DNA from: Flectonema sp. DT1601
Lineage: Eukaryota
Assembly (NCBI GenBank): GCA_964019425.1
Contig: OZ025792.1
Location: 806,001-870,000 of the forward strand
Direction of reading: 5' to 3'
Length of the DNA: 64,000 nucleotides
Shown: positions 36,239 to 55,673 of the stretch, piece after piece
How positions within the stretch are numbered: position 1 is the first letter of the stretch
Layout: every line of letters starts with the position of its first letter
The notes under the pieces: generated by a model
The model's database searches: none
Seen by the model: only the letters and a program-made list of their open reading frames with translations
Told to the model about the DNA's origin: nothing
Made by a program: the position numbers and the translations under genes

Positions 36239-38113
36239 CTAATCGACACTGAGAGGAGAGACTCTTGAGGTAGCTCGTGGTCTCGCAAACATGTCATTCA
36301 GTCTGCTACTCGGAGGGTATGGCATGTTGTCAGGTTTACTGGCCTGTTTCATAAACATCGTTTTTACGTCACACGATTTCGTCCTCGCAGTCCTTCGAAC
36401 TTTCAACCTGCAAGGAGACCTTGAGAGAGCCTTCAGTTCTGCAGGCGGCTCAGTCTTTTTCAAAATTTGCGAATTCTTCCGTCGTAGAAAAGCCGCGAGA
36501 TACGTCTCATCAGCTGCCTTTGAAATGAGTGCGGCTCGAGGAATGTTAAAATGATTTCCCCGCCTAGCAGTTCCTCTAGTTTCTCCAATTCTTAAATCGA
36601 TTGTATCTTTATGAACAGCTGTAACAGTACCGAGTATTCCAACTAGATTAGATAAGTCTTCAGTAGGAGTGATTCCTAATACAGAACAATGATATTCCAA
36701 CTCGTCTACAATTTCTGTTACAGTAGCGAGGTCTCCAGGCTTCCATTCTGTTTGATGTTCTTCAGGAGGGAGTTGTCTTGTGTCACCACCTTTATTATCA
36801 TTACAAAATGTATTTTTCGTCTTACTAATCATTACCGCAGGCTGTGGAGTGTCAGAAACAGAAACTTCCGCTTCCTTGTTTTGTTGGAGTCTCCAGTCGA
36901 GCATTTCCTTAAACAGTGCGACCTCGCTCTTAGCTCCTGATAGCTGAATATTTAATTTATTTATCATCATTCGTACTGCTGACCCTGCTTTGTTTGCTTG
37001 TTGTCCGTATTCTCTGTTTAGTTCAACAGCAGCTAACCAAGCTTGTTCTAACCATGATATATAATTCGAAACCTCGACCAAGTTATCAGCTCCCATGACA
37101 CGCTGCTTACCATGTTGATTGTAGAAGACAACTGTAGAACTGCCTCTCGACTCACCTTCGATATCTCTCATGACGAGTTGCTTTCGATGAGGGCAGGCGG
37201 AATCAAAAGAGTGAAGTGTTAGTGTCTGTGCGAGAGGTCGAAGTGGATACATTTGATGAATCACTCGAATATCAATTGGGCAGAACTTCGCCCCAACACA
37301 TGGATACGAACTGAACAGATATGAAAATATTTGTGACGTCCTAAAACAGAGCGACTCATCGTGTGAATTGAAGTCTCGTCCTCCACAATATTTGTTACTG
37401 AGTTGTAAGACACCGAGACATTTTCCATTTTCTCTGGTTAAAGGAAGCAGTAGAGCTGACCAGACTCGATATGCACTTCCTGAAACATTTCGAGATCCTT
37501 TAAATTGATAATTGCAACCTGTTGAACTTGGAACTGCTATCCGAGATGAGTAACAGGAGGAGACTAAACCTTCCGCGTTGCTACATCGCAGTTCGTTTGG
37601 CTTCATCGATCCGTAGCCGTAGGCTACTGCACCAATCATATCACCTCCGTCTTTATGAGGCACCCATACGACTGCTCTTTCAGCACCAGCTTCTTTAGCT
37701 GTTGCTTCTAAAATAAAATATAAAACTGTAGTTAGTGATTGATGAATACAAATCGGAACTTCCGTTGTTCGAATGGGAAGCTCCATGGCAGGCTCTTTCT
37801 CTTTGTCTTTATCTTTCTTTTGTTCATTTACTTCGGAATTGGGGACAGGGTTAATCCCAGCAATTGGAAAACTACCAGACAGCTCTTGAACCAACTCATG
37901 AGCACCAGAAGTGATCTCCATTAATCGTTTAGACCAACTGTCAGATAATTTCTTTCCCAAGTCTGACGGCTTTACTCGAGAAATCTCTTCTGCTAAATCA
38001 TTTAACTTATCACATTTTAGTTTTAGTTTCCAACATGATCTTCTCGGTTGGATTGTTTCCGCTGGCAACGTATTACCGAAATGATCGCTGTGACTCCTCC
38101 CATTGTCAATCAT
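36239..38113 (-). CDS. GAF-domain protein (624 aa)
   Basis: ILEATAKEAGAERAVVW..EGLVSSCY..SALLLPLTRENGKCLGVLQLSNKYCGGRDFNSHDE (GAF NKxxxxxFxxxDE motif). Confidence 0.85.
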   Translation of the reverse strand: MIDNGRSHSDHFGNTLPAETIQPRRSCWKLKLKCDKLNDLAEEISRVKPSDLGKKLSDSWSKRLMEITSGAHELVQELSGSFPIAGINPVPNSEVNEQKKDKDKEKEPAMELPIRTTEVPICIHQSLTTVLYFILEATAKEAGAERAVVWVPHKDGGDMIGAVAYGYGSMKPNELRCSNAEGLVSSCYSSRIAVPSSTGCNYQFKGSRNVSGSAYRVWSALLLPLTRENGKCLGVLQLSNKYCGGRDFNSHDESLCFRTSQIFSYLFSSYPCVGAKFCPIDIRVIHQMYPLRPLAQTLTLHSFDSACPHRKQLVMRDIEGESRGSSTVVFYNQHGKQRVMGADNLVEVSNYISWLEQAWLAAVELNREYGQQANKAGSAVRMMINKLNIQLSGAKSEVALFKEMLDWRLQQNKEAEVSVSDTPQPAVMISKTKNTFCNDNKGGDTRQLPPEEHQTEWKPGDLATVTEIVDELEYHCSVLGITPTEDLSNLVGILGTVTAVHKDTIDLRIGETRGTARRGNHFNIPRAALISKAADETYLAAFLRRKNSQILKKTEPPAELKALSRSPCRLKVRRTARTKSCDVKTMFMKQASKPDNMPYPPSSRLNDMFARPRATSRVSPLSVD

Positions 38114-38590
38114 TTCTGTAACTGGAACAAAATAAATATACTTAAGTCATTTCTTCTTCCTTTTCTGAACAAAATTCCATCTCGCAGAGAACATCCGGTC
38201 AGGTAGGTGAGCTGTCCAAAAAAAAAGAAGGGTCAAGGAGTCACCCGACAACAAAATCTGACCACTACGAAATTCTATTTCCAACAATACTCACCAGAGC
38301 AAACTTTATTGCGCCAACTGGTGGTAGTTCGGAGCAGTTCTCTGAATTGCGTGTACGGATGCCTAGGCTCACGTTATTAAGTTAACATGAATAAACCTGA
38401 GGATATTGTCTGCATTATTCTGGGGATGGGAGGGGGAGTAGGGAGGGTGGCAAGCATGACAAACATCCGTCGTATCTCTAATAAGTTTCATTTCGATAAG
38501 GTAGTGTGGCTAAAAGATGGCTAAAAGAAACTTGTTTTGCACGCTGTAAAGAAAAAAGAGAAAAAATCTTCCAAAAATGTCTACAACCTC

Positions 38591-41439
38591 TCAATTCTTA
38601 TCATCAACATCTTCTCCTCTCATCTTTGCTAACTCTTCTTTGGTCTTCGCTGGCCATACGGAGGCGTAACCTTCTGTACCGAACTGAGTCTGTTTTTAGT
38701 TGGAAGGTAGAGATCAGAATAGAGAGTCCTTGGAAGGTAAAAAAAAGTAAACTACACACCTGCTCCAGAATCCAAGGCTCTCTATCACCCATAACAGCTG
38801 GTGGGAGTTCACGTGACAGATCATAGGAAGGGTCGATAAACGGCTGCCTTGGAGATCCATTAACTGAGCACCAAATATCTGCGTAGATCTTTATCGCTTT
38901 TGAGTGGTCGATAATATCTTCTGTTCTGTCGGAAACATCAATTCTGTTTTAGTTATTGTTGTCTTCCTCATGAGGATTGAATTTCATATAAAAAAAAAGA
39001 AAGAAAAAGACCAACAGGCTCAACAATAATAATACAAAAAGACAACACAATAAAAGGAAAAGGTCAAGAAGTATAAAGAGGTTACTAATTGCTATCTACA
39101 TACCCGTCAATTTGCCTGACGGTCTTGGTCCAGTTTTCATAAAACTTTCTAAGTTTCCATGACAGTTGTCTGACGTATGTTGCGATAGTTGGAAGCTTCT
39201 TCAGTTGATGAGTATTCAGAGAGATAGGTCCGTTATAACCTGTTTCACTGATAGTGACGTTGTGATGTAATCCAATACCATCCGCGATAGTCATTAGAAC
39301 ACCAGAGCAGTTCTTATGCCTCGACATCATATGCCAACTAAACTTTCTTCCGTGTTCAGTCCAAGCAACTTGTTGATTTGTTCTAAAGTGGTAGTACACT
39401 GAACGGAGTGGGAGGAGGCATTCAATTATTGCTACAAAGATAAATATCAAACAGACAAAGACTCTGAATAATGGAGAATGTTTCTTACTAACTTTTGGTT
39501 GTGGAACACGAATAGTTCCATAAGGCTGAGTGTACCAAGTGCTGTGAAGATAGTGTTGGTAAACTTCATCAGTGAAGGCAGGTACGTTCGGATATACTTT
39601 TGCTCCGGTCCATCTGGCGAGTTTACGGGACCAAATCTCAAAGATTTCGAGTTTCTTAGGAAACGTGTCGGGTGTTAAAGTTAGCCTCTGCGCCCAGTCA
39701 GCTGATGATCTGATGAATCTTCTTGTCTCAAAAGTATCAACTAGAAGTGGAATAGATCCAAGCATCATCCAAGGAAACACTCCAATATTAAACATTATCA
39801 TATTGGATAAATTAAAGAAAATGAATCCGAAAAGGGCAAACATTCTCAGGGGACTGTAAGCGAAGTACAGAGGACCAACCATATCAAAAACCAAACCACC
39901 CCATCCGAGGAAGAAGACGCACAGCTCAGCAACAATCCACGGGACTTCTCCATCAAAACCTGCTCTCATGACATGTCCACTGACCCAGTCGTTGTTAAGT
40001 TTTGCGACAAATCCGTAAAAAAATACGAACAATATAAACGCCCTAAATATAAAATGGTGGAAATACGAAAACGTCTGTATCTCATTCACGTTTTCTTGCG
40101 GTTTTTCTTTACTTTTTTTAGTGAAGATTCCCTTAAGGAACTTCACAGGATCGAACTTTAGGCATCTATCAGTTCTGGCGATTAAGAATAGGAATCCAAG
40201 AGTCAGAATTAAATAATAATGATTATTATAGTGAGTAGCTTCAGAGAAGAAGTGCCAGGCAAAGGTTGGGATGAATAGCAAGCAGCTAAGACGGTATGGC
40301 CAACCAATCATGATACCGAATGAAGCAAGTCCCATTAAGTAGTAAACATAGTAGCAGTAAGGTTCACCAAGATCAGGTCCTAACCATTCCATGTAGTCGT
40401 ATTTAAATCTCATGCCAGACCAGCCGTGGTCTCTATAAACTCTTCCTTCATAGACAGCTTTGAATGCATAATCAATCATTAAGTATCCAAATAGAATTCT
40501 AAATATCGCTAACGGAAGGGGATCAGTTCTTAGGAACATCCATTCCTGAATTGAGAGATTACTTCCCCATCTAAATGGTAATGAACAAAGTGGGAAAAAC
40601 CAAGACGAAGCAGCACTCGGTTCGAAGTCAATCCAACCTGATTGAGAATGAACTGAGAACCCAAATGATCGTTGAATCCCAAAATTAACTTCTTTCATTT
40701 CTCTTTCAGCGCAGCCTTTCTTAATGTCTTGCTGCAACTCATAAGATCCGAGCGTGTCAATTAAAATAGGAAGCTCAGATTCCTTCTTCTGTTCGGCTTC
40801 AATCATCTGAACGACGTTATTAATTCCTTCTAATTCACAGCTGATGTCAGCTCCGGAAATCTTTTTCGCGGCTATCTCAAGATCCTTAAACATTCCATGT
40901 TTTCCAGATAAGATAATTTTAACAAAAGGAGGTCTCTTCTGATCCTTCACAGTTGGAAGCACTTCCAAGAGATTTGAAACGAAGGTCAGCTCCTCCTCGC
41001 TGTGAACGAACCAAAATATCTTCGCTCTCTTCATCTTTGAAGGTGCTTCCCATCGAAGCATTGCTATCAGAGGAATCTGAGCAAGTTGAGAAACACCGCA
41101 ATTCAAAATGAAGTATGGCGTTACTTGTTCACCACGACCAAGTACAGACCCACCATAACACTGAACATGAACTTCAAGTTTCAGACCAACGTTGAGGTGC
41201 TCCTTATTGATTCTCGTGAATTTTCTGACGTCGGAAAAGAAAATGGCGGCTTTCTCCCCGACGGTAGACAAAATTGAAAACCCGTCGAAGGAGACTTCCG
41301 TCCCTTCTCTTCTCAACATAACGTATATTCCCGGAATAGAAGCTTTCGGGATTCCATCGAAGAATAAAACGACGCCATTATCGAGTTTCTTTGCGTCTGT
41401 TGCTGTCCAAATACAAGTTTCTGTCTTTTTTTCCGTCAT
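38591..41439 (-). CDS. Vitamin K-dependent gamma-carboxylase-like (HTTM) protein with N-terminal FNR-like domain, copy 2; exons 41439-39104, 38943-38760, 38689-38591
   Basis: LAIFRILFGYLM, YNNHYYL, AKLNNDW, FNIGVFPWMML, WTEHGRKFSWHMM; spliced C-terminal exon IYADIWCSVNGSPRQPFIDPSYDL matches the GGCX IYFDIWVSIN..QRIFDP region. Confidence 0.88.
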
Positions 41440-41722
41440 ATTTGTAAGATCTGCTTTGGAGGGCAAGAAGTTAAAGCCTGCCTTCTCTTTGTGCGCAAAT
41501 GCTGAGAAGATGGTGTAAATGGTCAGGAAAGCCGTCCGAACACGTGCTGCGGATAATTATCAGAGCTCGTGGTGTGGAGGAGATGCCGGGGGAAAATAAG
41601 GGGGAAAAAAAAAATAAGGGAAGAAAGCAGAAGAATACAAAAAAAAAAAAAAAATAAGGAAAATCATTGAGCCTTGGTCAAACAATAAATATTGAATAAT
41701 AATAAAAAACACTGACACATAC

Positions 41723-44082
41723 TGCGCCAAGACGTTTCCGCTCATCTTCTGCTCGAGATGCTTTCTTATCTTCCAGCAGTATTGTCTAACGTATGTCGGT
41801 ACAAGGCAAAGCTTCTTAACTTGATGAGAGCTCAGTACTACCGGAGCCTTATACAGTTCTGGGTTCCTGGAATCAGGGATCGAATAATTAATCATCAGCT
41901 CATTATCAACCATGACGGTAATGTTTCCATCACATAACTTGTGTCGAGACATCATATGCCAACTAAACTTTCTTCCATGCTCTGTCCAAGCAACTTGTTG
42001 ATTACTACCGTGATGGTAATAGTGTGAACGGAATGGGTACACACATTCAATAACAATTACAATGAAAAGGAATAGAACGGATGCGAATCTAAAAACTGCT
42101 GGTTTTGAAGACTTTAAGACTGGCTGCTCAACTCTTAAAGTTCCTCCTGGCTGACTGTACCAAGTGCTGTGAAGGAAGTTTTGATAAATCTGATCTCTGT
42201 GTGGAGGAACAATCACTCGAATCCTTTCAACCCAACGAACTACACGAGAACGAACTCCACGTTCAAGAGATTGAAATGATTTTGGAAGAACACATTTAGA
42301 GCGACAAACGTTTTCAATTCTGTCGCAGTTCCAACGAATAAACTCACGAGGTTGATGTGTATCAACAAGAATTGGAATACAGCCAAGCATCATCCAAGGA
42401 AACACACCAATTGTAAACATAATCATGTTACACATATTAAAGAACATGAATCCCAACAATGAGAATGTTCTTAACGGGCTGTAACATAAATACAAAGGTC
42501 CAACCATATCAAAAACAAGACCACCCCAAGTGAGGAAGAAAACCAACAACTCAGATGCTACCCAGGGCAGTCCTTCGTCATCAAAACCCGCACGCATTGC
42601 GTGTCCGCTGCACCAATCGTTGTTAAGCTTTGCGAAGAATCCATAGAAGAAGACGAACAAGACAAACCCTCTAAAAACAAAGTGAGAATAGTACGACATC
42701 CTCGGGACTTCATTAACATTCTCTTCAGGTTTTATCTTCTCACCATTAGCGTCTACTTTCGGCTTCAAATAATTCTTCAAAATTCGAATCGGATCAAACT
42801 TAAGACAGGCATCAGCCCTCGTAATTAAAAAGAAGATCCCAAGACAAGTAATCAAATAATAATGATTATTGTAATGCGTAGCTTCAACAAAGAAATGCCA
42901 TGCGAAAGTAATTGAAAAAACTAAACTGCTAAGACGATATGGCCAACCAAGACCAATTCCAATGGAAGCTAACCCCATGACGTAATAAACATAGTAGCAG
43001 TAAGGGTCTCCCAGATCAGGTCCTAGCCATTCCATGTAGTCGTATTTAAATCTCATGTCTGTTTCAACGTAGGATCTCTGGGCTTTGCCTTCGGTTATTG
43101 TTTTCAAGGCATAGTCGAACATTAAATATCCAAATAGGATTCTGAATATAGCTAACGGAAGGGGATCTGTCTGTAGAAACATCCATTCCTGAACTGGTAA
43201 GTTATTACCCCACTTGAAAGGAGTAAAATTTAAAGGAAACAACCACGAGGTAGCTGACTGGTTCTGAAAATCAATCCAAGAAGAACGATTTAACTCCGGG
43301 AATCCGAATGACGCTTGAACTCCAAAAGTCACATTTTCAACGTCTTTAAAATTCTTCTTCAGATCCTCATGTAGTTCATGTGTTCCAATAGTCTCCAATA
43401 CAATCTTCTTGTCTTTTTCTTTTGTGATGAAATCCTTGAGGATAGGAACAGCTTTATTAATACCTTCCGCTTCACACACTACTTCAACTCCAGGAAGCTT
43501 TTTAGCCGTTGCTTGCAATTCTGTGAAGTCACCATGTTTACCAGAGAGAATGATTTGAACTTCAACGGCTCTCTTCTGTTTGGAAGATTTCTGTCTGTCA
43601 AGTACGGCAGCCACCAGTTCAATCTCTTCAGAAGAATGAACAAACCAAAATATTTTTGGTATTTTCATTTCTGCAGGTACATCCCAGCGCATGATGGACG
43701 CTAATGGTATCAAGGCGAGAGGAGTAACTCCGCAATTCAAAACAAAACAAACTTTACTCTCCGCAGAGCGTGAGATCGGAGAAGCACCTCCAGGTTTCTT
43801 CATCACTTCAAACTTCGGACTCTCACTCAGAAGGTAGTCTCTGTGTGTAATTGTGAATCGACGTCGGGATGAAAAGTAAACCACAACATCCTCTCCAACA
43901 GTATTCGCCATTGAGAATGCATCAAAATCAACGGAGCTTCCATCTTTTCTGATTTTAATGAACGCACCGGGGAATTTGTTACTTGCCTTTCCATCAAAAT
44001 GAACCAAAATACCACTCGGCAGAACCTCCTGCTTCACTGCTGTCCAGGTGGTATAAGGATTCTCTTCCGGCTCAGATGACAT
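41723..44082 (-). CDS. Vitamin K-dependent gamma-carboxylase-like (HTTM) protein with N-terminal FNR-like domain, copy 1; large first exon lacking its own C-terminal exons
   Basis: Paralogous to copy 2 throughout; ends at a phase-2 GTATGT donor (41722) at the homologous position. Read-through to 41560 is low-complexity intron-like sequence. Confidence 0.85.
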
Positions 44083-44215
44083 TTTTAATAATTTCTGTAA
44101 TAAAAAATATTTTAATAAAAAAACACCAACTAGGAAGTCAATTAATAGCGAGAAAAGGAAAATAGCTCAGAAATTCCTGATGGATGTCTTTTGACAGAAA
44201 ATCCTATATTTTGCA

Positions 44216-45385
44216 TCACTGAAGTAGTGCAGCCAACAGCTTGTCGGGATCCATCTCTGGTTTGTATCTACTTTTGGGTTGTCCTCCAGTTATGAGAATC
44301 TGTTCTAAGGCTTGTTTAATTTCTCTAGTTTGGGGAACATCATTAATTCTCATTTGATCAGAAAGGATGTCAGCTGACCTCACAGATCCAATCTTTATAT
44401 AAACTTTTAGCATTGCGAGGTAAACGAATACGACGTCTCTTTCTTTATTGCGAAACACTTTTTGAAATACCTCCTCCGCAGCAAGAAAACTCGCATCTCC
44501 AAACGAACAAGTCCGCTCTCTGTGGCTGTCAATTAAACAGCAGTGAGACTCTGTAGTGTGTTTAGACATTTCGTTGTAAATGGTTTCTAATTTATTGTGT
44601 TCGTTGGATGCCAAGTAGCAACGCATTAGAGCATTCTGCGAAGAATGACTGAGAACGGCCGACTTGAATTGTGTGCTGAGTAGTCGTTCAGCAGATTCTG
44701 ATGGAGAGTTTGATATAATACAAAGTCTTCTAAATACTTGAGAGTACACTCCGTCATCCATCACAACTCTGGTGTCGTTCTGTAAGCGGGTTAGGATGTT
44801 AATTAAATCATTTTCAGTCTGTGATGTTCCTAAGTAAGCAGTCCAGTCTTGAATAGATAATTCATCGAATGTTGTGTAAAGTGAACTTCTCTCTGATGCA
44901 GTATCGGAATCACCTGCTCTAGTCATTACCGATACAAACTTTGTCAGAGTTCTAGAAGTGTGTATAATCCCATTGTTAGTCATCTCACTTTCAATTTCCC
45001 TCAAGAAGGGAGCGTCTCTGGCTGCAAACTTGCCTCTTTCAATAACTTGTTGATAGTTCTTTTTGGATAATTTAACTCCTCGACTTAGAAGTTCTGAATA
45101 CACTTTGTTGGCTCTACCCACGGCCCCAATTCTACAAAGTACTTCAAGTGCTGCTACCAAGGTCTCATTACCAACTCCAGGTTTCGCACAAGCGTCCGTA
45201 ACGAGTCCACCCACAGCTGCTGGTGATAACTTCATCGTTTTTATTGTCCGCAACTTCCTTGCCGCCTGGAGGTCTTCCTGCTGAAGAGTTAGCTTGTGTC
45301 TTCTCCCTATTATTGGCAAGTTGTTCTTCTTCACAGCCCCCAGCTGTGCAACTGCTCTGCTGCAGTCTCGAAAAAGGTGTTTCAT
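44216..45385 (-). CDS. Pentatricopeptide-repeat-like protein, probably mitochondrial
   Basis: Degenerate 35-aa repeats (LEVLCRIGAVGRANKVYSELLSRGVK; YLAMLKVYIKIGSVRSADILSDQMRINDV); basic N-terminal presequence-like segment. Confidence 0.65.
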   Translation of the reverse strand: MKHLFRDCSRAVAQLGAVKKNNLPIIGRRHKLTLQQEDLQAARKLRTIKTMKLSPAAVGGLVTDACAKPGVGNETLVAALEVLCRIGAVGRANKVYSELLSRGVKLSKKNYQQVIERGKFAARDAPFLREIESEMTNNGIIHTSRTLTKFVSVMTRAGDSDTASERSSLYTTFDELSIQDWTAYLGTSQTENDLINILTRLQNDTRVVMDDGVYSQVFRRLCIISNSPSESAERLLSTQFKSAVLSHSSQNALMRCYLASNEHNKLETIYNEMSKHTTESHCCLIDSHRERTCSFGDASFLAAEEVFQKVFRNKERDVVFVYLAMLKVYIKIGSVRSADILSDQMRINDVPQTREIKQALEQILITGGQPKSRYKPEMDPDKLLAALLQ

Positions 45386-46996
45386 CTCATGTTCATATAA
45401 TCCTTATCACCTTCCAACTCCTGTCTGAAGTAATTGCGTTACTGAACAGATTAAGAAGGAAGCAAACCTTATCAAAGTTTATTGCATTGTGATCAGTGTT
45501 GAGTATCCTTTGTTGAGAATGTAAGTGAGAGAAGATTATTGCAATGAAGCTCAAAATATGACAATTGAAGCGACAAAAGGGGCCCTTCTTTCGGGATGGG
45601 AAGGGGGATGGCTCACGTTTAATTACTGAGAGTTGGGAGGTGGTAACATTCTTTTAAAGTTACTGATTTTAGTGATGAATAAAAAAAAAACTGATAAAAA
45701 AAGTATGAAGCCCACCACCCAACAAAAATTGACAATTTAGTGCCGAGAAAAGGCTGTATATAATCTTCTACCTCGATAATCAAAAAGAATTACCACCAAT
45801 CGCTCTGAGTAAGCTAAACAATAAGACGCGCACTTTCACTCGTGGGGTGCTCCGAAGTCGCGCATCACTGCTCTTTCTTATTTACTTTATTTATTTATTT
45901 TTTTAAAACGACTTTTCAGAATTTCCGTCAGTCAGTTTCAATGTTACCATCTGTTGTTCATTACTAAAACACTTTGCACTGTGCGAAAACCCTCAAAAAC
46001 AATACAACCGCTCAACTACATCAACATCGTTTTGGAGCACCCTCCGATAATTTGAATTGCTCTCCACCCCAGAAAAAAAAAAAAGGAAAAAGTTTTTTTT
46101 TTTTTTTTTTAAAAATCAAGAAACGAAAGAAATGATGGAATAAGGAGATAGAAAAAAGAAATTAAAAAAAAAAAAAAAAAAATTGGGGAGAACAAAAAAA
46201 AAAAAAAAAAAGAGTTGAGTTCACGATGCCTGCTGTCTGCAAGCTGAACAAAAAAAGAAAAAAAAAAAGGAAATGACACATGCAGGACCCAAAAACTGCT
46301 GACAATAACGAGTCAAGTAAATAATTTCAAAAGAAAAAAAAAGGGAAATCAAACCTGGTATGATGAGTCCTAAAGGCAAGACTTATATTTTTTCAAGCAA
46401 TAGGCATCTCCATTTGTTGTACCACATGGCAAGCTGCCTATCACATGCCGTTTAAACTAATTTTTTTTCTTTTCTTTTTTTTTCTTCTTTTTATTACCAT
46501 TTTTAGAAACTTATTCTTCCTCATTTTTCTTTTTTTTCCCCTTTTTTTTTTCCTTTTTCTCGTCTTCTTTTTATATTTATTTTTCCCTGTGTTGACCTTC
46601 CCAATAAGTATCAACGAATGTAAGCAAAGGAACAAAAAAAAAGGTTTAAAAAAAAGTGTTGAAGAAAAGATAACCAAAAGAAGTAAAAGGCTCAGCACAT
46701 GGGGGGTATTTTCTCGAAAGGTTTCACAAAAAAAAGATATGTTTCTACGAATCGAACTCAAAACCAGCATGTAGCTTCACCACGGAGAGAGGGAGCATAA
46801 AGAAAAAGGCAAAGAGAGAAGTTGACAATTTTAAGGCGCCGCGAGAGGCTTCGCCGATAAATGACATCAAAACTACAAGAGTTTGGAAGTCGTTCTGTCT
46901 TTGGAATAGAAAGGAAAGTAAGATTACAGATTGCGAAGGAATGGAACGAATAAAGTAGCACTCTATTTGATGAATCCTCAAAGTTAGTTAAGTTAT

Positions 46997-49720
46997 TTAT
47001 TCCTGTTCGGCTTCCTCCTCCTCCTCTGCTTCTTCTTCAACTTCTTCCTCCTCACCTCCTCCAACAAACTCCTTCAAGTGCTTGGCGGCAACGGCTGTTT
47101 TTGGTGAAATAATATTTTAAGTATTTAAAGTAACAACTCATCAGATACTAACATACCTATCTTTGACGATCCCTTCATTCCATTAAATACTGAGGAGAGG
47201 GTTTCAGTATCGAAGAGCTGTACATCTTCAATGAGGTATTTAATCATAAAAGTAATTACTGCTTCTTCTTCAATCAATGGCCAAGAAGTTTTGTGGTTGA
47301 AAGCAATCAAAGCGTTTAGAACGGTGCTGGTCTTCTCTTCGATATCAGTTTCGAACTTCATGTCAGCGTGAAGTGGACGCCAGAGACCTTCAACAACGAT
47401 AGCGTACAACTCCTGAACGTCCTCGTATGGTCTTTCTTCCTCTGCGAGTTCCTGGAAGCACAATTTGATCATTCTGCAACCATTTCTAAATACTGAGTTA
47501 ATCTCTTTGTATCCCGTAAAGTCTGAGGTTTCCTCAGGGTCCGATGGGAGAAGTTTCTTCAACACAACAGCTGCTCTGGAGTAGGCCTTTGGTTTATCAC
47601 TGACAAGATCTTCCATGGCTGAGTTAGCAATGAAGTAAGCAATTCCTCTCATGATATCGTCTCTTTTAAATAAAGAAGTACTTGTTAAGAAGTTGATGTA
47701 CTCAGAGAGCATGTCGCGACTCTCTTCATCGTTCTCGACAGCAATAGCTCTAAGCACTTCCATCACAACAACTGGGCAGAGGTTGTCAAAGTTGTATTCC
47801 TCTTCGTAGTGCTTCATATCCTCTTCTAACAATATATTCTTTTCAACTTCCATCATACACTCCATTGCTCTGGTTCCCACCTTAGCTCTGAAGGCTGAGT
47901 CAACTTCCATAGGTGGCTTGTCTCTTGCCTTCTTTTCGTCTTCATCCTTGTCCCTGTGCTTCTTCTCCTTCTTGTCCTTCTTCTTCTTCTTTTTGTCTCC
48001 GCTCTGAATCGAGCTGTAGGCATTGCTCTGTGTTTGGTAGTTTGTGAATTGTTTTTCGACATAGAAAGGGAATGTATTTCAGTACTACAACAGGAGAGGA
48101 ATAGTCAAAACATACCTTGGTTGGCTGTGGTTGTGGGGTACCAGCGGCTTTACTACCTCCACTTCCAGCTGCACCACTGCCGCCACTGGCCTGCTTTGCG
48201 GTGTTTTTAGTGCTTCCCTTCTTAGAGGTCCCGGTAGTTTGCCACTCGTCCTTCGCGTTCTTCTTTGCGGCGGCCGCTGCCTTAGCTTCATCTTTCCTCG
48301 CCTTACCTCCAACGGACTTGTGGACAGTTGCACCAGAACCCCACGCGTTACTCTCTCCAGAGTGAGATACGTTACCCTGACCGGCCAACCTGTTTGTTTG
48401 TTTTTGTGATTATTCCGATACTGTACATCGAGCATCATTGATTAAATACATACTTCTTTCTCTCAGCGTCATCGCTCTCTTTCTCGAGATCCTTCAATTT
48501 CTTGGCAGTTCCTGCCTTTTGAGGCTGTTTTTTTTGTTTTTTTTTTGTTTTGTTTTTTTTCGTATGATTAGAATGGTTGCTAGTTAGAAATAAATAGAAA
48601 GACAACATACCCATCCCTTAGCTCTCGCTTCTACAGTGTTGATGATAGAAAACTGAATACGCTTATCGAACCTTCCATTGTGGGCCAACTTCTCCATCTC
48701 ACTAAAGTACTCGTCAATCTTCTGAGAGTGGTCAAACTTCTCACCTCTCTTTCTGAGTTCCATCTCTCTTCCGACTGTGTTGAGAAGCTTGCAAAGAACT
48801 TCGATTTCCTCCCCTGCTGGGATTCCATCTTTCTTGAATAAGATTTCAGGAATAACCCAATGAATAACTTTGTTAGAAAGCATCTGAGTTTTGTATAATT
48901 CTCCAACGAAGTGAACGTTTCCAAGTTGGCGTTTTTTGGCAAGAAGTTCTTCGAGATCACGTTCTTCAATAGTCTGTTCAGGGTCAACTTTACTTCTCTC
49001 AAGGATCTTCTTACAACGTTCGAATTCACCCTGTACAACTTGAATGAACTGACTTCTAAATCTCAAATCACCGCCTTTCTTTGATTGCTTCTCTCTGTCT
49101 GACATTCTCTTTGATAGCGATGCGTACATTTCACAGAAAGAAGGCTGGTTAGCAGCTCTATCAAAGATAAGTTGGATAGTCAAGTTCATCGCCTCCTCGG
49201 TGTTGAGAATCTCATCCTTTCCAACAAGTTGCTCAGAAAGAGCTTCGTATTTCTCAGGAGTTAACTTGTTAAGTACACCGTTAACGAATTTCTTAACCTT
49301 ATCTAACTCTGATAATTCATTTTGACTCTTAATACGGTAAGCGTCTTCAGTAGTCTGCAGAGAGCCCAGACCGTTATCAACTTGCTGCTTCTCACTTCCG
49401 AATATAGCTCTACCCTCTCCTGCGTTGTTAGAGTTATCGTTTCTGTTGTTAGAAATGTTATACATGAATGCTCCCATGCTGCCTTCGGTTTCAGGCTTCT
49501 CGAGACCTTCTTCCTTCAGTCTGTCGATGAGACCTTCTGGAAGCTGAGGATCATCTTGAACTTTTTGTTTTATTTCCAACATGTGGTCAAGTTCATATTG
49601 GTACTTTGGCTTGTCATCTGACAAAAGGTCTTCCACAGCTGTGCTACTTGACGGAGCCTTCACATCAGTGGTGACGGTCTTCTGCTGACTTTTGTTGTTC
49701 TTGAAACTAAACAACGACAT
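46997..49720 (-). CDS. eIF4G: Eukaryotic translation initiation factor 4G-like (MIF4G + MA3-like); exons 49720-48611, 48524-48454, 48389-48116, 48027-47157, 47094-46997
   Basis: VNGVLNKLTPEKYE, IFDRAANQPSFCEMYASL, KKRQLGNVHFVGELYK, IEVLCKLLNTVG, RIQF; four GT-AG introns join the pieces in frame. Confidence 0.9.
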
Positions 49721-50220
49721 TTTCGCAACTGATTAGTAGTGCGCTTTTGATAATCTGATTGAAGGGAAGGAAATGATAAATAAAAAGATTGACAATAAGA
49801 AATGTTAAACTGCCGAGTGCGAAAACGTTTCTTCCACTCATTTATTTGTCTAAAGAGGAATAAAAACGTCCTTCGATAAAATCAACAAAGTGCTTCGGCT
49901 TTTCATGTGCTTCACCTCGTGAGTTGGTAGTCAGTACGACACATTCTCTTTTTGTGTTGCTGCAATAAAGAAAGGAGGGGTCAATAGACTTCGCTACTAC
50001 AGATGATTGTCCAAGGGCATACGCAACAGCGAATCCCTTCCTTATAAAATAATATTATCAAAAATGCGTTCATTGCAAACTCCTGACGAAATGAGTTGCA
50101 CATTAGGTTCTCTTTGGAAACTGGCTGGAATAGGAGAACTACCCAATGATGAGATACTACTTAAAGAGCCTCCTGCTGAGAGAGTACTACAATACGATCG
50201 ATACGATAAATAGTAAGGAC

Positions 50221-53291: not shown

Positions 53292-55673
53292 TCATACAGC
53301 AAGTACGGGAACGGGAGACAACGAGGCGCTATCTCCTTTAAACTGCATAGTGTTTATTTCTTTTCTGCTAATCTTCTCGTGAGTGATTTTACTCCAAAGT
53401 AACAAAGAAAGGTGATAGCGATCTGGTAAGTGATCTCCACAGAAGTGCGGAGACACATACATTACATTAACAGCCCAACTTGCCATATCTGCAGAAGACA
53501 GATGTTCATTTGATTTTCCTTTCGAAGTGTGCGGCGCAGGCGAGTGAATCGCCTTCACAGTTTCAGCTCCTGTCGACTGCGGGAGATCATACACCAGAAG
53601 TCCTTTTTTGCATCTTCCAACTGGGCGATCAATTAGTCGTAACTTTCCAGGTATATAAAGTCTCTTATGAGGCATGTCACGATGGATATCCTCATCTTTA
53701 AATCCGGCAACTTCTCTTGCAAGTCTTTCGAGATTAATTACAGACACTCGAGGGATGGCATCCAGTCCGCAGATGACGCTGGTGACGAATTTCTCGGAAT
53801 TCACCCGCTGGAGCAATTTGTCACACACAACTGGTGGAGAGCCGAACGAAAAACATTCGACACGATGCTTCCATCCTTGCATTTCACTCTCAACTTTTTT
53901 TGATGTGAACTTTTCGTTTTTAACGCACTCTTCTGTAGCAATAGTTGGGTCAGTGTGACTCACCTCCTTGTCCTGGTTACTCTCCATAGTCTCCTTTACA
54001 ACATTATCATTCTCAGGTTGAGTAGGGATCTCCGAAGTCTCCTCTGGGGGAGGAGTGGAGGGGACAACATTATCATTCTCAGGTTGAGTAGGGATCTCCG
54101 TAGTCTCCTTTACAACATTGTCATTCTCAGGTTGAGTAGGGATCTCCGAAGTCTCCTGGACAACATTATCACTCTCAGATTGAGTAGGGCTACTTGTTTT
54201 GTCATCTTTCTGTTTGCATTCATCTCTGACAGTGATACAAAAAAGCGTCGCCACAGCAGCACCGAGAGAGTGTCCCGTCACAATAATTCGATAGTTCGGA
54301 TACTTTTTCGCGTTGATATCCATCTGGGATATTAAATTTAAATTATTTAACACAGAATCTGTACATTGTTTAATACCACTGTGTGCTTCCCCGTCAAGGA
54401 ACGGACCTGAATCAGCTGCTAAGTCAGTGAGAGTATCTTTATCAGAGACTGTTCCTCTGATTGCTAAAATAATCCATTTCATATTGTGATCGACGAATAG
54501 TACAAAAGCTGGATTATAAACCTGATTTGACCAATCACTCATAACTAACTCTCTGTCAGTATTTGAGATCGCATCCAGAACTTGTAGCGCTCCGATGTCA
54601 TTTTCACGAGAAGTGACATCCCGACCAACATCTTTAAATGGTTTCAGTATTGTGTGCATTCTAAATGCTGCTCCCAGTGATCGTAAGTGACCTCCCGTGT
54701 ATGCAACGCCATAACTAGCCTTTGCGTACAGCATTGCTTGAGCACAGTCTAAGGCTTCTTTTTGATCATTTTGTAATTTGTGTTTCGCGTGTAGAACATT
54801 ATAAAGTTTCGTGTGTCTGTACGACACTCTGATTAGTGAAACTGGATTAGCCAGCGACAGCTTTCTACGAATTGGCCATCTTTTACTAAAGTCCTGCAAC
54901 AAGTGCTTTAATACTTTCATTGCATCATCTCGGTGAGCATTGTCTTCGGATTGGAATTCGTTGTTTGTTTCCTTTTTGACGTGTCCAACTCGAACTTTGT
55001 TAAATTCATGTTTTTCTGCACAGCTTTGATGGTAGTAGCGATCACATGCCATACATCTAACACAATACATGACTCCCCAAATGAATTCTTTACAACTTGA
55101 ACACCAAACTGGTTTCATTGGAATAGTCGCCTGAACAACGTGACTGAGACAGTCAGCGAAGGAAACTTCGAGAAGCTGAATTGATTCTTCCTGAGGTTGA
55201 CATCCAACTTCATCATCCACATCTCTACTGAGTTCCCCAAGACTTTGATCTGTTGACTTGCTAGAACTGCTTGCGAGACTCTTCAACGATCCGTCAGCAG
55301 TCCTCTTCTTCGTGCTGCTCGTGAATGAGGTTTCTCTTTTCTTTGTTAAACTCTTTGGACTCTCTTCCAACATCGTTTCTTCTAATTTCCCAATTGATGA
55401 CAAAGTATTTGGAAGACATTTCACGTGTGTTATCAATCCACACAAAGTACACTTCATTCCTTGCTTGTGAATGCCCCAAATACTTCCGCTGCAACATCCA
55501 CAAGTCTGTCCTAATTTAACTGTTGCGCTGGACATTTTATGTTGGCAGCCAACATACTTCGAGTTTACGATTTTCGTTGCAATTTCTCTGGACATTTGCT
55601 TCTTACTCAAAGTCTTTGGTGAAGCTGGCTGATTTGGATCGCTCTTTGTCATTGCGACTGATGAACGAGTCAT
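53292..55673 (-). CDS. Class 3 lipase (DAG-lipase-like) with two N-terminal C1 domains (start could be 55808)
   Basis: C1: H..CGCCSGSIWGIHKQGMKCTLCGLITHVKC and H..WCSSCKEFIWG..RCMACDRYYHQSC; lipase: ILAIRGT..TDL, AHSG, VTGHSLGAAVA, CFSFGSPP, DAIPRVS, DHLPDRY. Confidence 0.88.
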   Translation of the reverse strand: MTRSSVAMTKSDPNQPASPKTLSKKQMSREIATKIVNSKYVGCQHKMSSATVKLGQTCGCCSGSIWGIHKQGMKCTLCGLITHVKCLPNTLSSIGKLEETMLEESPKSLTKKRETSFTSSTKKRTADGSLKSLASSSSKSTDQSLGELSRDVDDEVGCQPQEESIQLLEVSFADCLSHVVQATIPMKPVWCSSCKEFIWGVMYCVRCMACDRYYHQSCAEKHEFNKVRVGHVKKETNNEFQSEDNAHRDDAMKVLKHLLQDFSKRWPIRRKLSLANPVSLIRVSYRHTKLYNVLHAKHKLQNDQKEALDCAQAMLYAKASYGVAYTGGHLRSLGAAFRMHTILKPFKDVGRDVTSRENDIGALQVLDAISNTDRELVMSDWSNQVYNPAFVLFVDHNMKWIILAIRGTVSDKDTLTDLAADSGPFLDGEAHSGIKQCTDSVLNNLNLISQMDINAKKYPNYRIIVTGHSLGAAVATLFCITVRDECKQKDDKTSSPTQSESDNVVQETSEIPTQPENDNVVKETTEIPTQPENDNVVPSTPPPEETSEIPTQPENDNVVKETMESNQDKEVSHTDPTIATEECVKNEKFTSKKVESEMQGWKHRVECFSFGSPPVVCDKLLQRVNSEKFVTSVICGLDAIPRVSVINLERLAREVAGFKDEDIHRDMPHKRLYIPGKLRLIDRPVGRCKKGLLVYDLPQSTGAETVKAIHSPAPHTSKGKSNEHLSSADMASWAVNVMYVSPHFCGDHLPDRYHLSLLLWSKITHEKISRKEINTMQFKGDSASLSPVPVLAV
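53989..54189 (-). repeat. Coding minisatellite (about 48-nt unit, ~4 copies) encoding ETSEIPTQPENDNVV
   Basis: Repeated acaacattatcattctcaggttgagtagggatctccg. Confidence 0.9.

Follow-up and report, generated by a model that had tools for sequence, protein, structure and literature searches.

A window of 64,000 nucleotides (nt) from Flectonema sp. DT1601 (GenBank assembly GCA_964019425.1, contig OZ025792.1, positions 806,001 to 870,000; positions below are those of the window) carries on its minus strand one gene in which two duplicated giant first exons stand ahead of a single shared pair of 3' exons. The host is a marine diplonemid flagellate, and the products are predicted to be membrane-bound HTTM/GGCX-like enzymes that bear a NOX/FNR-like domain at the N terminus. 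We are highly confident that this variable/constant locus is real and conserved. Comparison of the two copies with their relatives demonstrates that a partial tandem duplication copied the region from the start codon to the first donor, and not the 3' exons, before the split from Flectonema neradi. Assembled transcripts of F. neradi show each first exon joined to the same constant exons, and we infer the same joining for the organism of the window. It is reasonably probable that the isoforms of this one gene are chosen on a polycistronic precursor, where addition of the spliced leader (SL) in front of copy 2 would compete with cis-splicing across copy 2. The wider proposition, that diplonemids have promoter-free genes in the style of UGT1A and the protocadherins, in which an intron-nested SL acceptor acts as an isoform switch that is skipped on purpose and kept by selection across species, is one toward which we lean only slightly.

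The coding parts of variable exons 1 and 2 extend for 2360 and 2336 nt to their donors, both end in phase 2, and the variable exon makes up approximately 89% of the protein; the two are identical at 413 of 771 aligned residues (54%). The initial annotation of this DNA had placed start codons at 44082 and 41439 and phase-2 GTATGT donors at 41722 and 39103, and all four are present as described, the donors being the only two GTATGT motifs on the minus strand within 37000-46000. That the donors occupy homologous positions holds to within one codon, window copy 1 being one residue shorter ahead of the junction. The two constant exons are opened by the acceptors 38944 and 38690, and the first of them closes with the GTGTGT donor 38759. 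Joining donor 41722 to acceptor 38944 yields the in-frame, full-length protein that had been proposed (880 amino acids (aa), ...VLAQ/IDVSDR...), and the copy-2 exon joined to the same constant exons gives 872 aa, likewise in frame. Donors of the GTATG type, introns ending in CAG, and 3' splice regions rich in A agree with what has been described for Diplonemidae, in which the donor consensus is (G)/GTATG (PMC12621601; published work is cited here by accession).

Between donor 1 and the copy-2 ATG lie 11 AGs, each of which leads to a stop within 66 residues; none enters the copy-2 frame and none gives a homologous tail. The acceptor near 41547, which had been noted as giving a short non-homologous tail, indeed adds approximately 24 residues before a stop. 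Fusion of copy 1 into copy 2 through a short intron is thus ruled out, with 0 of the 11 AGs yielding the copy-2 frame. Left unspliced, copy 1 stays open for 54 codons beyond donor 1 and reaches a stop at 41560, giving 840 aa; the added tail is non-homologous and falls within a stop-poor pyrimidine tract in which the two other frames are equally poor in stops. In the database the locus is represented by two truncated proteins, 840 and 784 aa long; plain calling of open reading frames (ORFs) overlooks it. A loose acceptor motif occurs 73 times on the minus and 56 times on the plus strand, and GTATG 41 and 38 times, separating neither strands nor types of site; motif counts are therefore uninformative alone, and the argument is built on frame, domain and homology. 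Among five other candidate introns chosen by motif, only two kept the frame open when joined.

The claim that the C-terminal exons exist only once was upheld across the window. The two constant exons find themselves by tblastn at E 3e-39 and 6e-19, the next best matches have E 2.3 and 0.31, and no second copy of the 3' exons was found in the 64 kb. The sequences that follow donor 1 and donor 2 have no blastn match to one another; their local alignment score of 31 was reached by 6 of 200 shuffles, both sequences being T-rich.

A search with copy 1 returned 13 proteins among 7995 candidates scored. Across the searches, the nearest relatives of the two proteins come from F. neradi, followed by Diplonema papillatum, Rhynchopus, Lacrimia, Namystynia, and Hemistasia. 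The F. neradi proteins DN591_c0_g1 i4 and i5 are two isoforms of one Trinity gene, and their last 94 aa are identical, starting at the first whole codon past the junction of the window; upstream of it they share 54% identity, with a longest identical run of 22 aa, and are of equal length, without the one-residue offset seen in the window. Among the variable parts, copy 1 shows 74% identity with i4 and 55% with i5, copy 2 shows 79% with i5 and 54% with i4, and the constant part of the window agrees with that of F. neradi at 82 of 93 residues. The variable/constant locus put forward by the initial annotation is thus borne out by two isoforms that combine orthologous variable parts with a constant part identical from the predicted junction onward, as well as by the split Pfam domain and the Namystynia comparison described below. 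These assembled transcripts connect both variable exons to the constant pair, and by this evidence the layout is expressed in F. neradi.

In a tree of 11 rows, copy 1 grouped with i4 (support 100/100), copy 2 with i5 (100/99), and all four formed one clade (100/100). Only the variable parts of these four were used, and P0006, P0015, P0018, P0162, P0163 and every non-diplonemid match were omitted. Since copy 1 groups with i4 and copy 2 with i5, the duplication predates the divergence of the two species and is specific to this lineage among the sampled diplonemids. One gene each was found in D. papillatum, two Rhynchopus, Lacrimia, and Hemistasia by these searches, and a published orthogroup table lists one copy in each of the four diplonemids it covers (PMC10161547). 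Namystynia karyoxenos has an independent whole-gene duplication (P0162, P0163) with private C-termini. These paralogues are identical at 527 of 953 columns, a divergence like that of the window copies, and their common suffix is a single residue, indicating that an identical tail is not a property of the family. Constant exon 1, searched for among the longer proteins, gave three matches among 13 candidates, two from F. neradi and one from Lacrimia. None of 2730 candidates for shorter relatives of copy 1 (30-431 aa) passed, and a metagenome scan returned 58 loci whose best segments were 20-37% identical, with none matching the N-terminal 279 residues; the scan contained neither a close relative nor a second genomic instance of the layout.

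The junction lies within a protein domain. Positions 6-104 of Pfam family PF22777 are matched in copy 1 and positions 104-135 in constant exon 1, the domain being split exactly at the junction, and both F. neradi isoforms carry one continuous match (6/7-135). PF05090 scores 153 and 146 bits, and PF22777 scores 53 and 56 bits in the full F. neradi isoforms (cut-off 27.7); both families exceed their curated cut-offs, which places the proteins in the HTTM/GGCX-like family. The copies had been called carboxylase paralogues; paralogy and family membership stand, and the name should be "carboxylase-like." An AlphaFold2 model of full-length F. neradi i4 (886 aa; 83-row alignment, mean pLDDT 88) superposes on human GGCX over residues 276-861 (VIA Z 26.4, root-mean-square deviation (rmsd) 3.1, 449 aligned; Foldseek E 9e-20), and this superposition crosses the exon junction at 792/793. 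In the model the variable exon contributes the lumenal strands 719-729 and 733-739 and the constant exon the strand 808-819, and these may form a sheet like the central three-stranded sheet of clamp A in human GGCX (PMC12647623). The constant exons evidently complete the lumenal domain. The superposition stops at model residue 861 (human residue 516), and the i4 protein ends 25 residues later. The region of animal GGCX past human residue 516, which we take to comprise the second clamp and the C-terminal domain, is absent from the diplonemid protein.

Likeness to human GGCX covers the membrane part and the first lumenal part, and extends in part to the active site, for which published roles include those of the catalytic base K218, with W223, N159, H160, and F299, and of the Glu-anchoring Y395 (PMC12647623). 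With human numbering assigned by hand from the alignment, the residues equivalent to N159, H160, K218, W223, N290, and F299 are retained in both copies, whereas those equivalent to K217, H287, and Y395 are A, N, and R and are altered in all diplonemid rows; the Y395 column holds Arg in 11 of 11 covering rows and is mapped through a weakly aligned stretch. Almost every active-site residue that was mapped is encoded by the variable exons, and the two copies agree at these positions. A further difference from human GGCX is the additional N-terminal domain. Its approximately 260 residues have no Pfam match, and in the model they superpose on DUOX1 (7d3f; Z 16.4, rmsd 3.7, 242 aligned, model residues 7-262), pointing to a two-domain FAD/NAD(P)-binding fold. 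Such a NOX/DUOX dehydrogenase or FNR-like fold falls at 43300-44082 and 40660-41439 (minus strand) and likewise in other diplonemid homologues; its cofactor motifs look degenerate. Among the best 150 matches listed, the best stretch begins in the N-terminal region for diplonemid proteins only. Through its fusion to a GGCX-like enzyme, a domain resembling a reductase could provide reduced quinone.

The Lacrimia lanifica homologue (P0015, P0016) is without a loop of approximately 25 residues that spans the junction, so the junction falls in a dispensable loop. In the genome-derived ORFs P0006 and P0007 homology is lost right after an HQLKK motif, which suggests that the corresponding genomes have an intron lying approximately 25 codons upstream of the junction seen in the window.

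Between the two copies of the window pS, the proportion of synonymous differences, is 0.76 (saturated), while its nonsynonymous counterpart pN is 0.30 over 771 codon pairs and 0.17 in the membrane domain, a pattern that reads as purifying selection. The stem branch of the copy-1 type is longer (0.58 vs 0.27), and 11 outgroup-conserved residues have been lost in the copy-1 type vs 3 in the copy-2 type, several of them close to where the membrane domain begins, a hint that the function of isoform 1 has changed.

With regard to how the isoforms are made, 24 of the 26 ORFs of at least 200 aa lie on the minus strand in a run unbroken from 11755 to 62434, and so long a one-strand run of genes fits a polycistronic, SL-processed cluster of the euglenozoan kind. 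D. papillatum has been reported to carry one-strand gene clusters and the SL on essentially all mRNAs, which was read as polycistronic processing, and co-transcription with little control at initiation has been argued for it (PMC10161547). Trypanosomatids have been reported to add the SL at cis acceptors and inside an intron (PMC11613528). Competition between cis- and trans-splicing would fit both the one-strand cluster and this published biology. The locus would be transcribed as one portion of the long one-strand unit, and the 283-nt spacer would contain no promoter. Addition of the SL in the spacer would cut the precursor and lead to isoform 2, the released copy-1 piece being degraded or becoming a truncated 840-aa by-product; if the spacer were skipped, donor 1 would pair with acceptor 38944 and 2,779 nt, comprising the spacer, the entire variable exon 2 and intron 2, would be removed in cis to give isoform 1. 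The two outcomes would be mutually exclusive, one precursor yielding one full-length isoform. The 103-nt pyrimidine tract of the spacer is a plausible control element; the minus strand of the window has five tracts of this kind in all.

Several observations count against this account. The isoform-1 junction in the organism of the window is a prediction from frame, domain and homology, and polycistronic transcription in diplonemids has been deduced from gene order and SL use rather than from promoter mapping. If SL addition and polyadenylation are as tightly coupled as in trypanosomes, skipping of the spacer needs further explanation. Cis and candidate trans acceptors look alike in the window, and the SL acceptor of copy 2 cannot be picked out among the 11 AGs. 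Pairing between the RNAs of the spacer and intron 2 did not exceed chance, 127 of 200 shuffles being as stable; folded singly, the two were unremarkable (27 and 22 of 100 shuffles). The layout has been seen in just one other species, F. neradi, whose proteins were translated from Trinity transcripts assembled from short reads, and such assemblies can contain chimeras. A chimera would be expected to switch within a shared stretch, such as the 22-residue run approximately 70 residues upstream; the identity of i4 and i5 starts instead at the junction.

Copy 2 might have an internal promoter of its own, in the spacer or the end of copy 1, so that the choice would be transcriptional as in UGT1A and the SL would be added to a short outron. 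Vertebrate clusters work in this way (PMC1885805), and diplonemid promoters are unmapped in the literature consulted, PMC10161547 never using the term "promoter" in its main text. That same source, however, favors co-transcription with little initiation control, and the promoter would have to fit into a 283-nt spacer inside a one-strand run of 24 long ORFs. We regard it as unlikely. In Drosophila mod(mdg4), common 5' exons and variable 3' exons are joined between molecules, and isoform 1 could similarly derive from two precursors, with copy-1 RNA cut after the donor and spliced to the constant exons of another molecule. This would avoid skipping an SL site and would call on trans-splicing machinery that is constantly used in this lineage; however, exon order and strand permit plain cis-splicing, no pairing element was found between the spacer and intron 2, and 2.8 kb is far below the validated 72-kb intron of D. 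papillatum (PMC10161547). We hold joining between molecules to be quite improbable.

It is also very doubtful that copy 1 has ceased to use the shared exons in this organism, being either in decay or translated unspliced as an 840-aa protein with a hydrophobic tail. The frame open for 54 codons past donor 1, the greater loss of conserved residues in the copy-1 type (11 vs 3) and the A rather than G at position -1 of donor 1, compared with the (G)/GTATG consensus (PMC12621601), would all accord with such a fate. Nevertheless, the tail agrees with the constant part at only 9 of 51 columns and owes nothing special to its frame, the other two being stop-poor too; the donor is intact at its ancestral position, and the copy itself is intact and 74% identical to i4, which is spliced and has the same 11 changes. 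Finally, the genome assembly might have collapsed two whole genes whose 3' ends are near-identical, with Trinity merging their counterparts in F. neradi. When a repeat is collapsed, the unique sequence between the copies is normally lost, whereas here it is kept, and the collapse would need to be repeated in the transcriptome of a second species; moreover, the sequences after donors 1 and 2 are unlike, the F. neradi identity starts exactly at the splice junction, and the equally old whole-gene paralogues of Namystynia have diverged ends. Such an artefact is very improbable.

Variable/constant clusters are known from vertebrates. In UGT1A, UGT2A, GCNT2, and protocadherin alpha and gamma each variable exon has a distinct promoter, the large first exons are similar, tandem and of the same phase ahead of one constant set, and variable exons are orthologous across species (PMC1885805). 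The Flectonema locus likewise has tandem, paralogous, large first exons of the same phase and a single downstream constant set in the 64-kb window, and is closest in shape to UGT2A, with its two variable exons, and GCNT2, with its two constant exons. It differs in belonging to a unicellular euglenozoan, in its place within a one-strand cluster where exon 2 is preceded by a 283-nt spacer, in devoting approximately 89% of the protein to the variable exon, and in having its junction within a domain and not between domains. It would work like the vertebrate variable-first-exon clusters; separate promoters are predicted to be absent, and it is not filed as a member of that class. In trypanosomatid PAP1, RBP20, and DBP2B the SL is added at an intron acceptor or inside an intron, in competition with cis-splicing, and the SL product is without exon 1 (PMC11613528), whereas here internal entry would open a paralogous replacement exon with its own donor, so that both outcomes would be full-length proteins. 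Like mod(mdg4), the locus would yield several isoforms from common and variable exons, but the exon order is reversed and joining between molecules is not required.

A full-text search that took in few subscription papers found no such variable/constant locus in the Euglenozoa literature, and the classes of alternative splicing given for D. papillatum (PMC10161547) and Euglena gracilis (PMC11170887) do not, in the text available, include this type. The layout is thus new for this lineage as far as searched. The layout of the vertebrate clusters has here arisen in a unicellular lineage thought to be without gene-by-gene control of transcription, so that the choice would fall to RNA processing. 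If isoform 1 is made in cis, SL addition in the spacer must be skipped, and the locus therefore offers a direct test of whether SL addition in diplonemids, together with any coupled polyadenylation, can be skipped. The locus further illustrates a route by which tandem duplicates that are only partial can persist as enzymes of full length. The features of the locus are collected in Table 1.

Table 1. Features of the two-copy locus in the order of transcription; positions are those of the window.
Feature	Position	Strand	Remarks
Spacer from upstream PPR gene to copy 1, 133 nt	44083..44215	-	Predicted candidate SL acceptor TTACAG ending 44095
Variable first exon 1, coding part, 786 codons + 2 nt	41723..44082	-	ATG 44082; NOX/FNR-like N-terminal domain, HTTM membrane domain, first part of lumenal domain
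Donor 1, phase 2	41717..41722	-	CA/GTATGT, read in the sequence
Predicted isoform-1 intron, 2,779 nt	38944..41722	-	In-frame join; equivalent join in F. neradi i4
Spacer before copy 2, 283 nt	41440..41722	-	103-nt pyrimidine tract 41671-41569; 11 AGs; predicted SL acceptor of copy 2, candidates 41547, 41502, 41454, 41451
Variable first exon 2, coding part, 778 codons + 2 nt	39104..41439	-	ATG 41439; domain layout as in exon 1
Isoform-2 intron, 160 nt	38944..39103	-	Donor GG/GTATGT; common A-rich acceptor CTAAAACAG
Constant exon 1, 184 nt	38760..38943	-	Pfam PF22777 positions 104-135
Intron, 70 nt, phase 0	38690..38759	-	GTGTGT ... CTAAAAACAG; spliced peptide agrees with i4 and i5 of F. neradi
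Constant exon 2, 32 codons + stop	38591..38689	-	Matches F. neradi isoforms

Elsewhere in the window, the PPR-repeat gene upstream (44216-45403, minus strand) ends 133 nt before copy 1. Farther upstream, a MIF4G-domain ORF is followed by an acidic helical ORF (47125-49732, minus strand) with GTATGT sites between them, and the two are probably one intron-containing eIF4G-like gene; a 31-nt candidate intron tried there did not keep the frame open. A 48-nt tandem repeat of 2.7 copies (54062-54189), with more partial copies nearby, lies within the coding region of a C1-domain/lipase-3 gene. Between 5500 and 10210, three long inverted repeat pairs of 146, 115, and 90 nt (88-93% complementary, 1.4-2.4 kb apart) surround overlapping ORFs without a convincing Pfam match, and are likely the remains of repeats or mobile elements.

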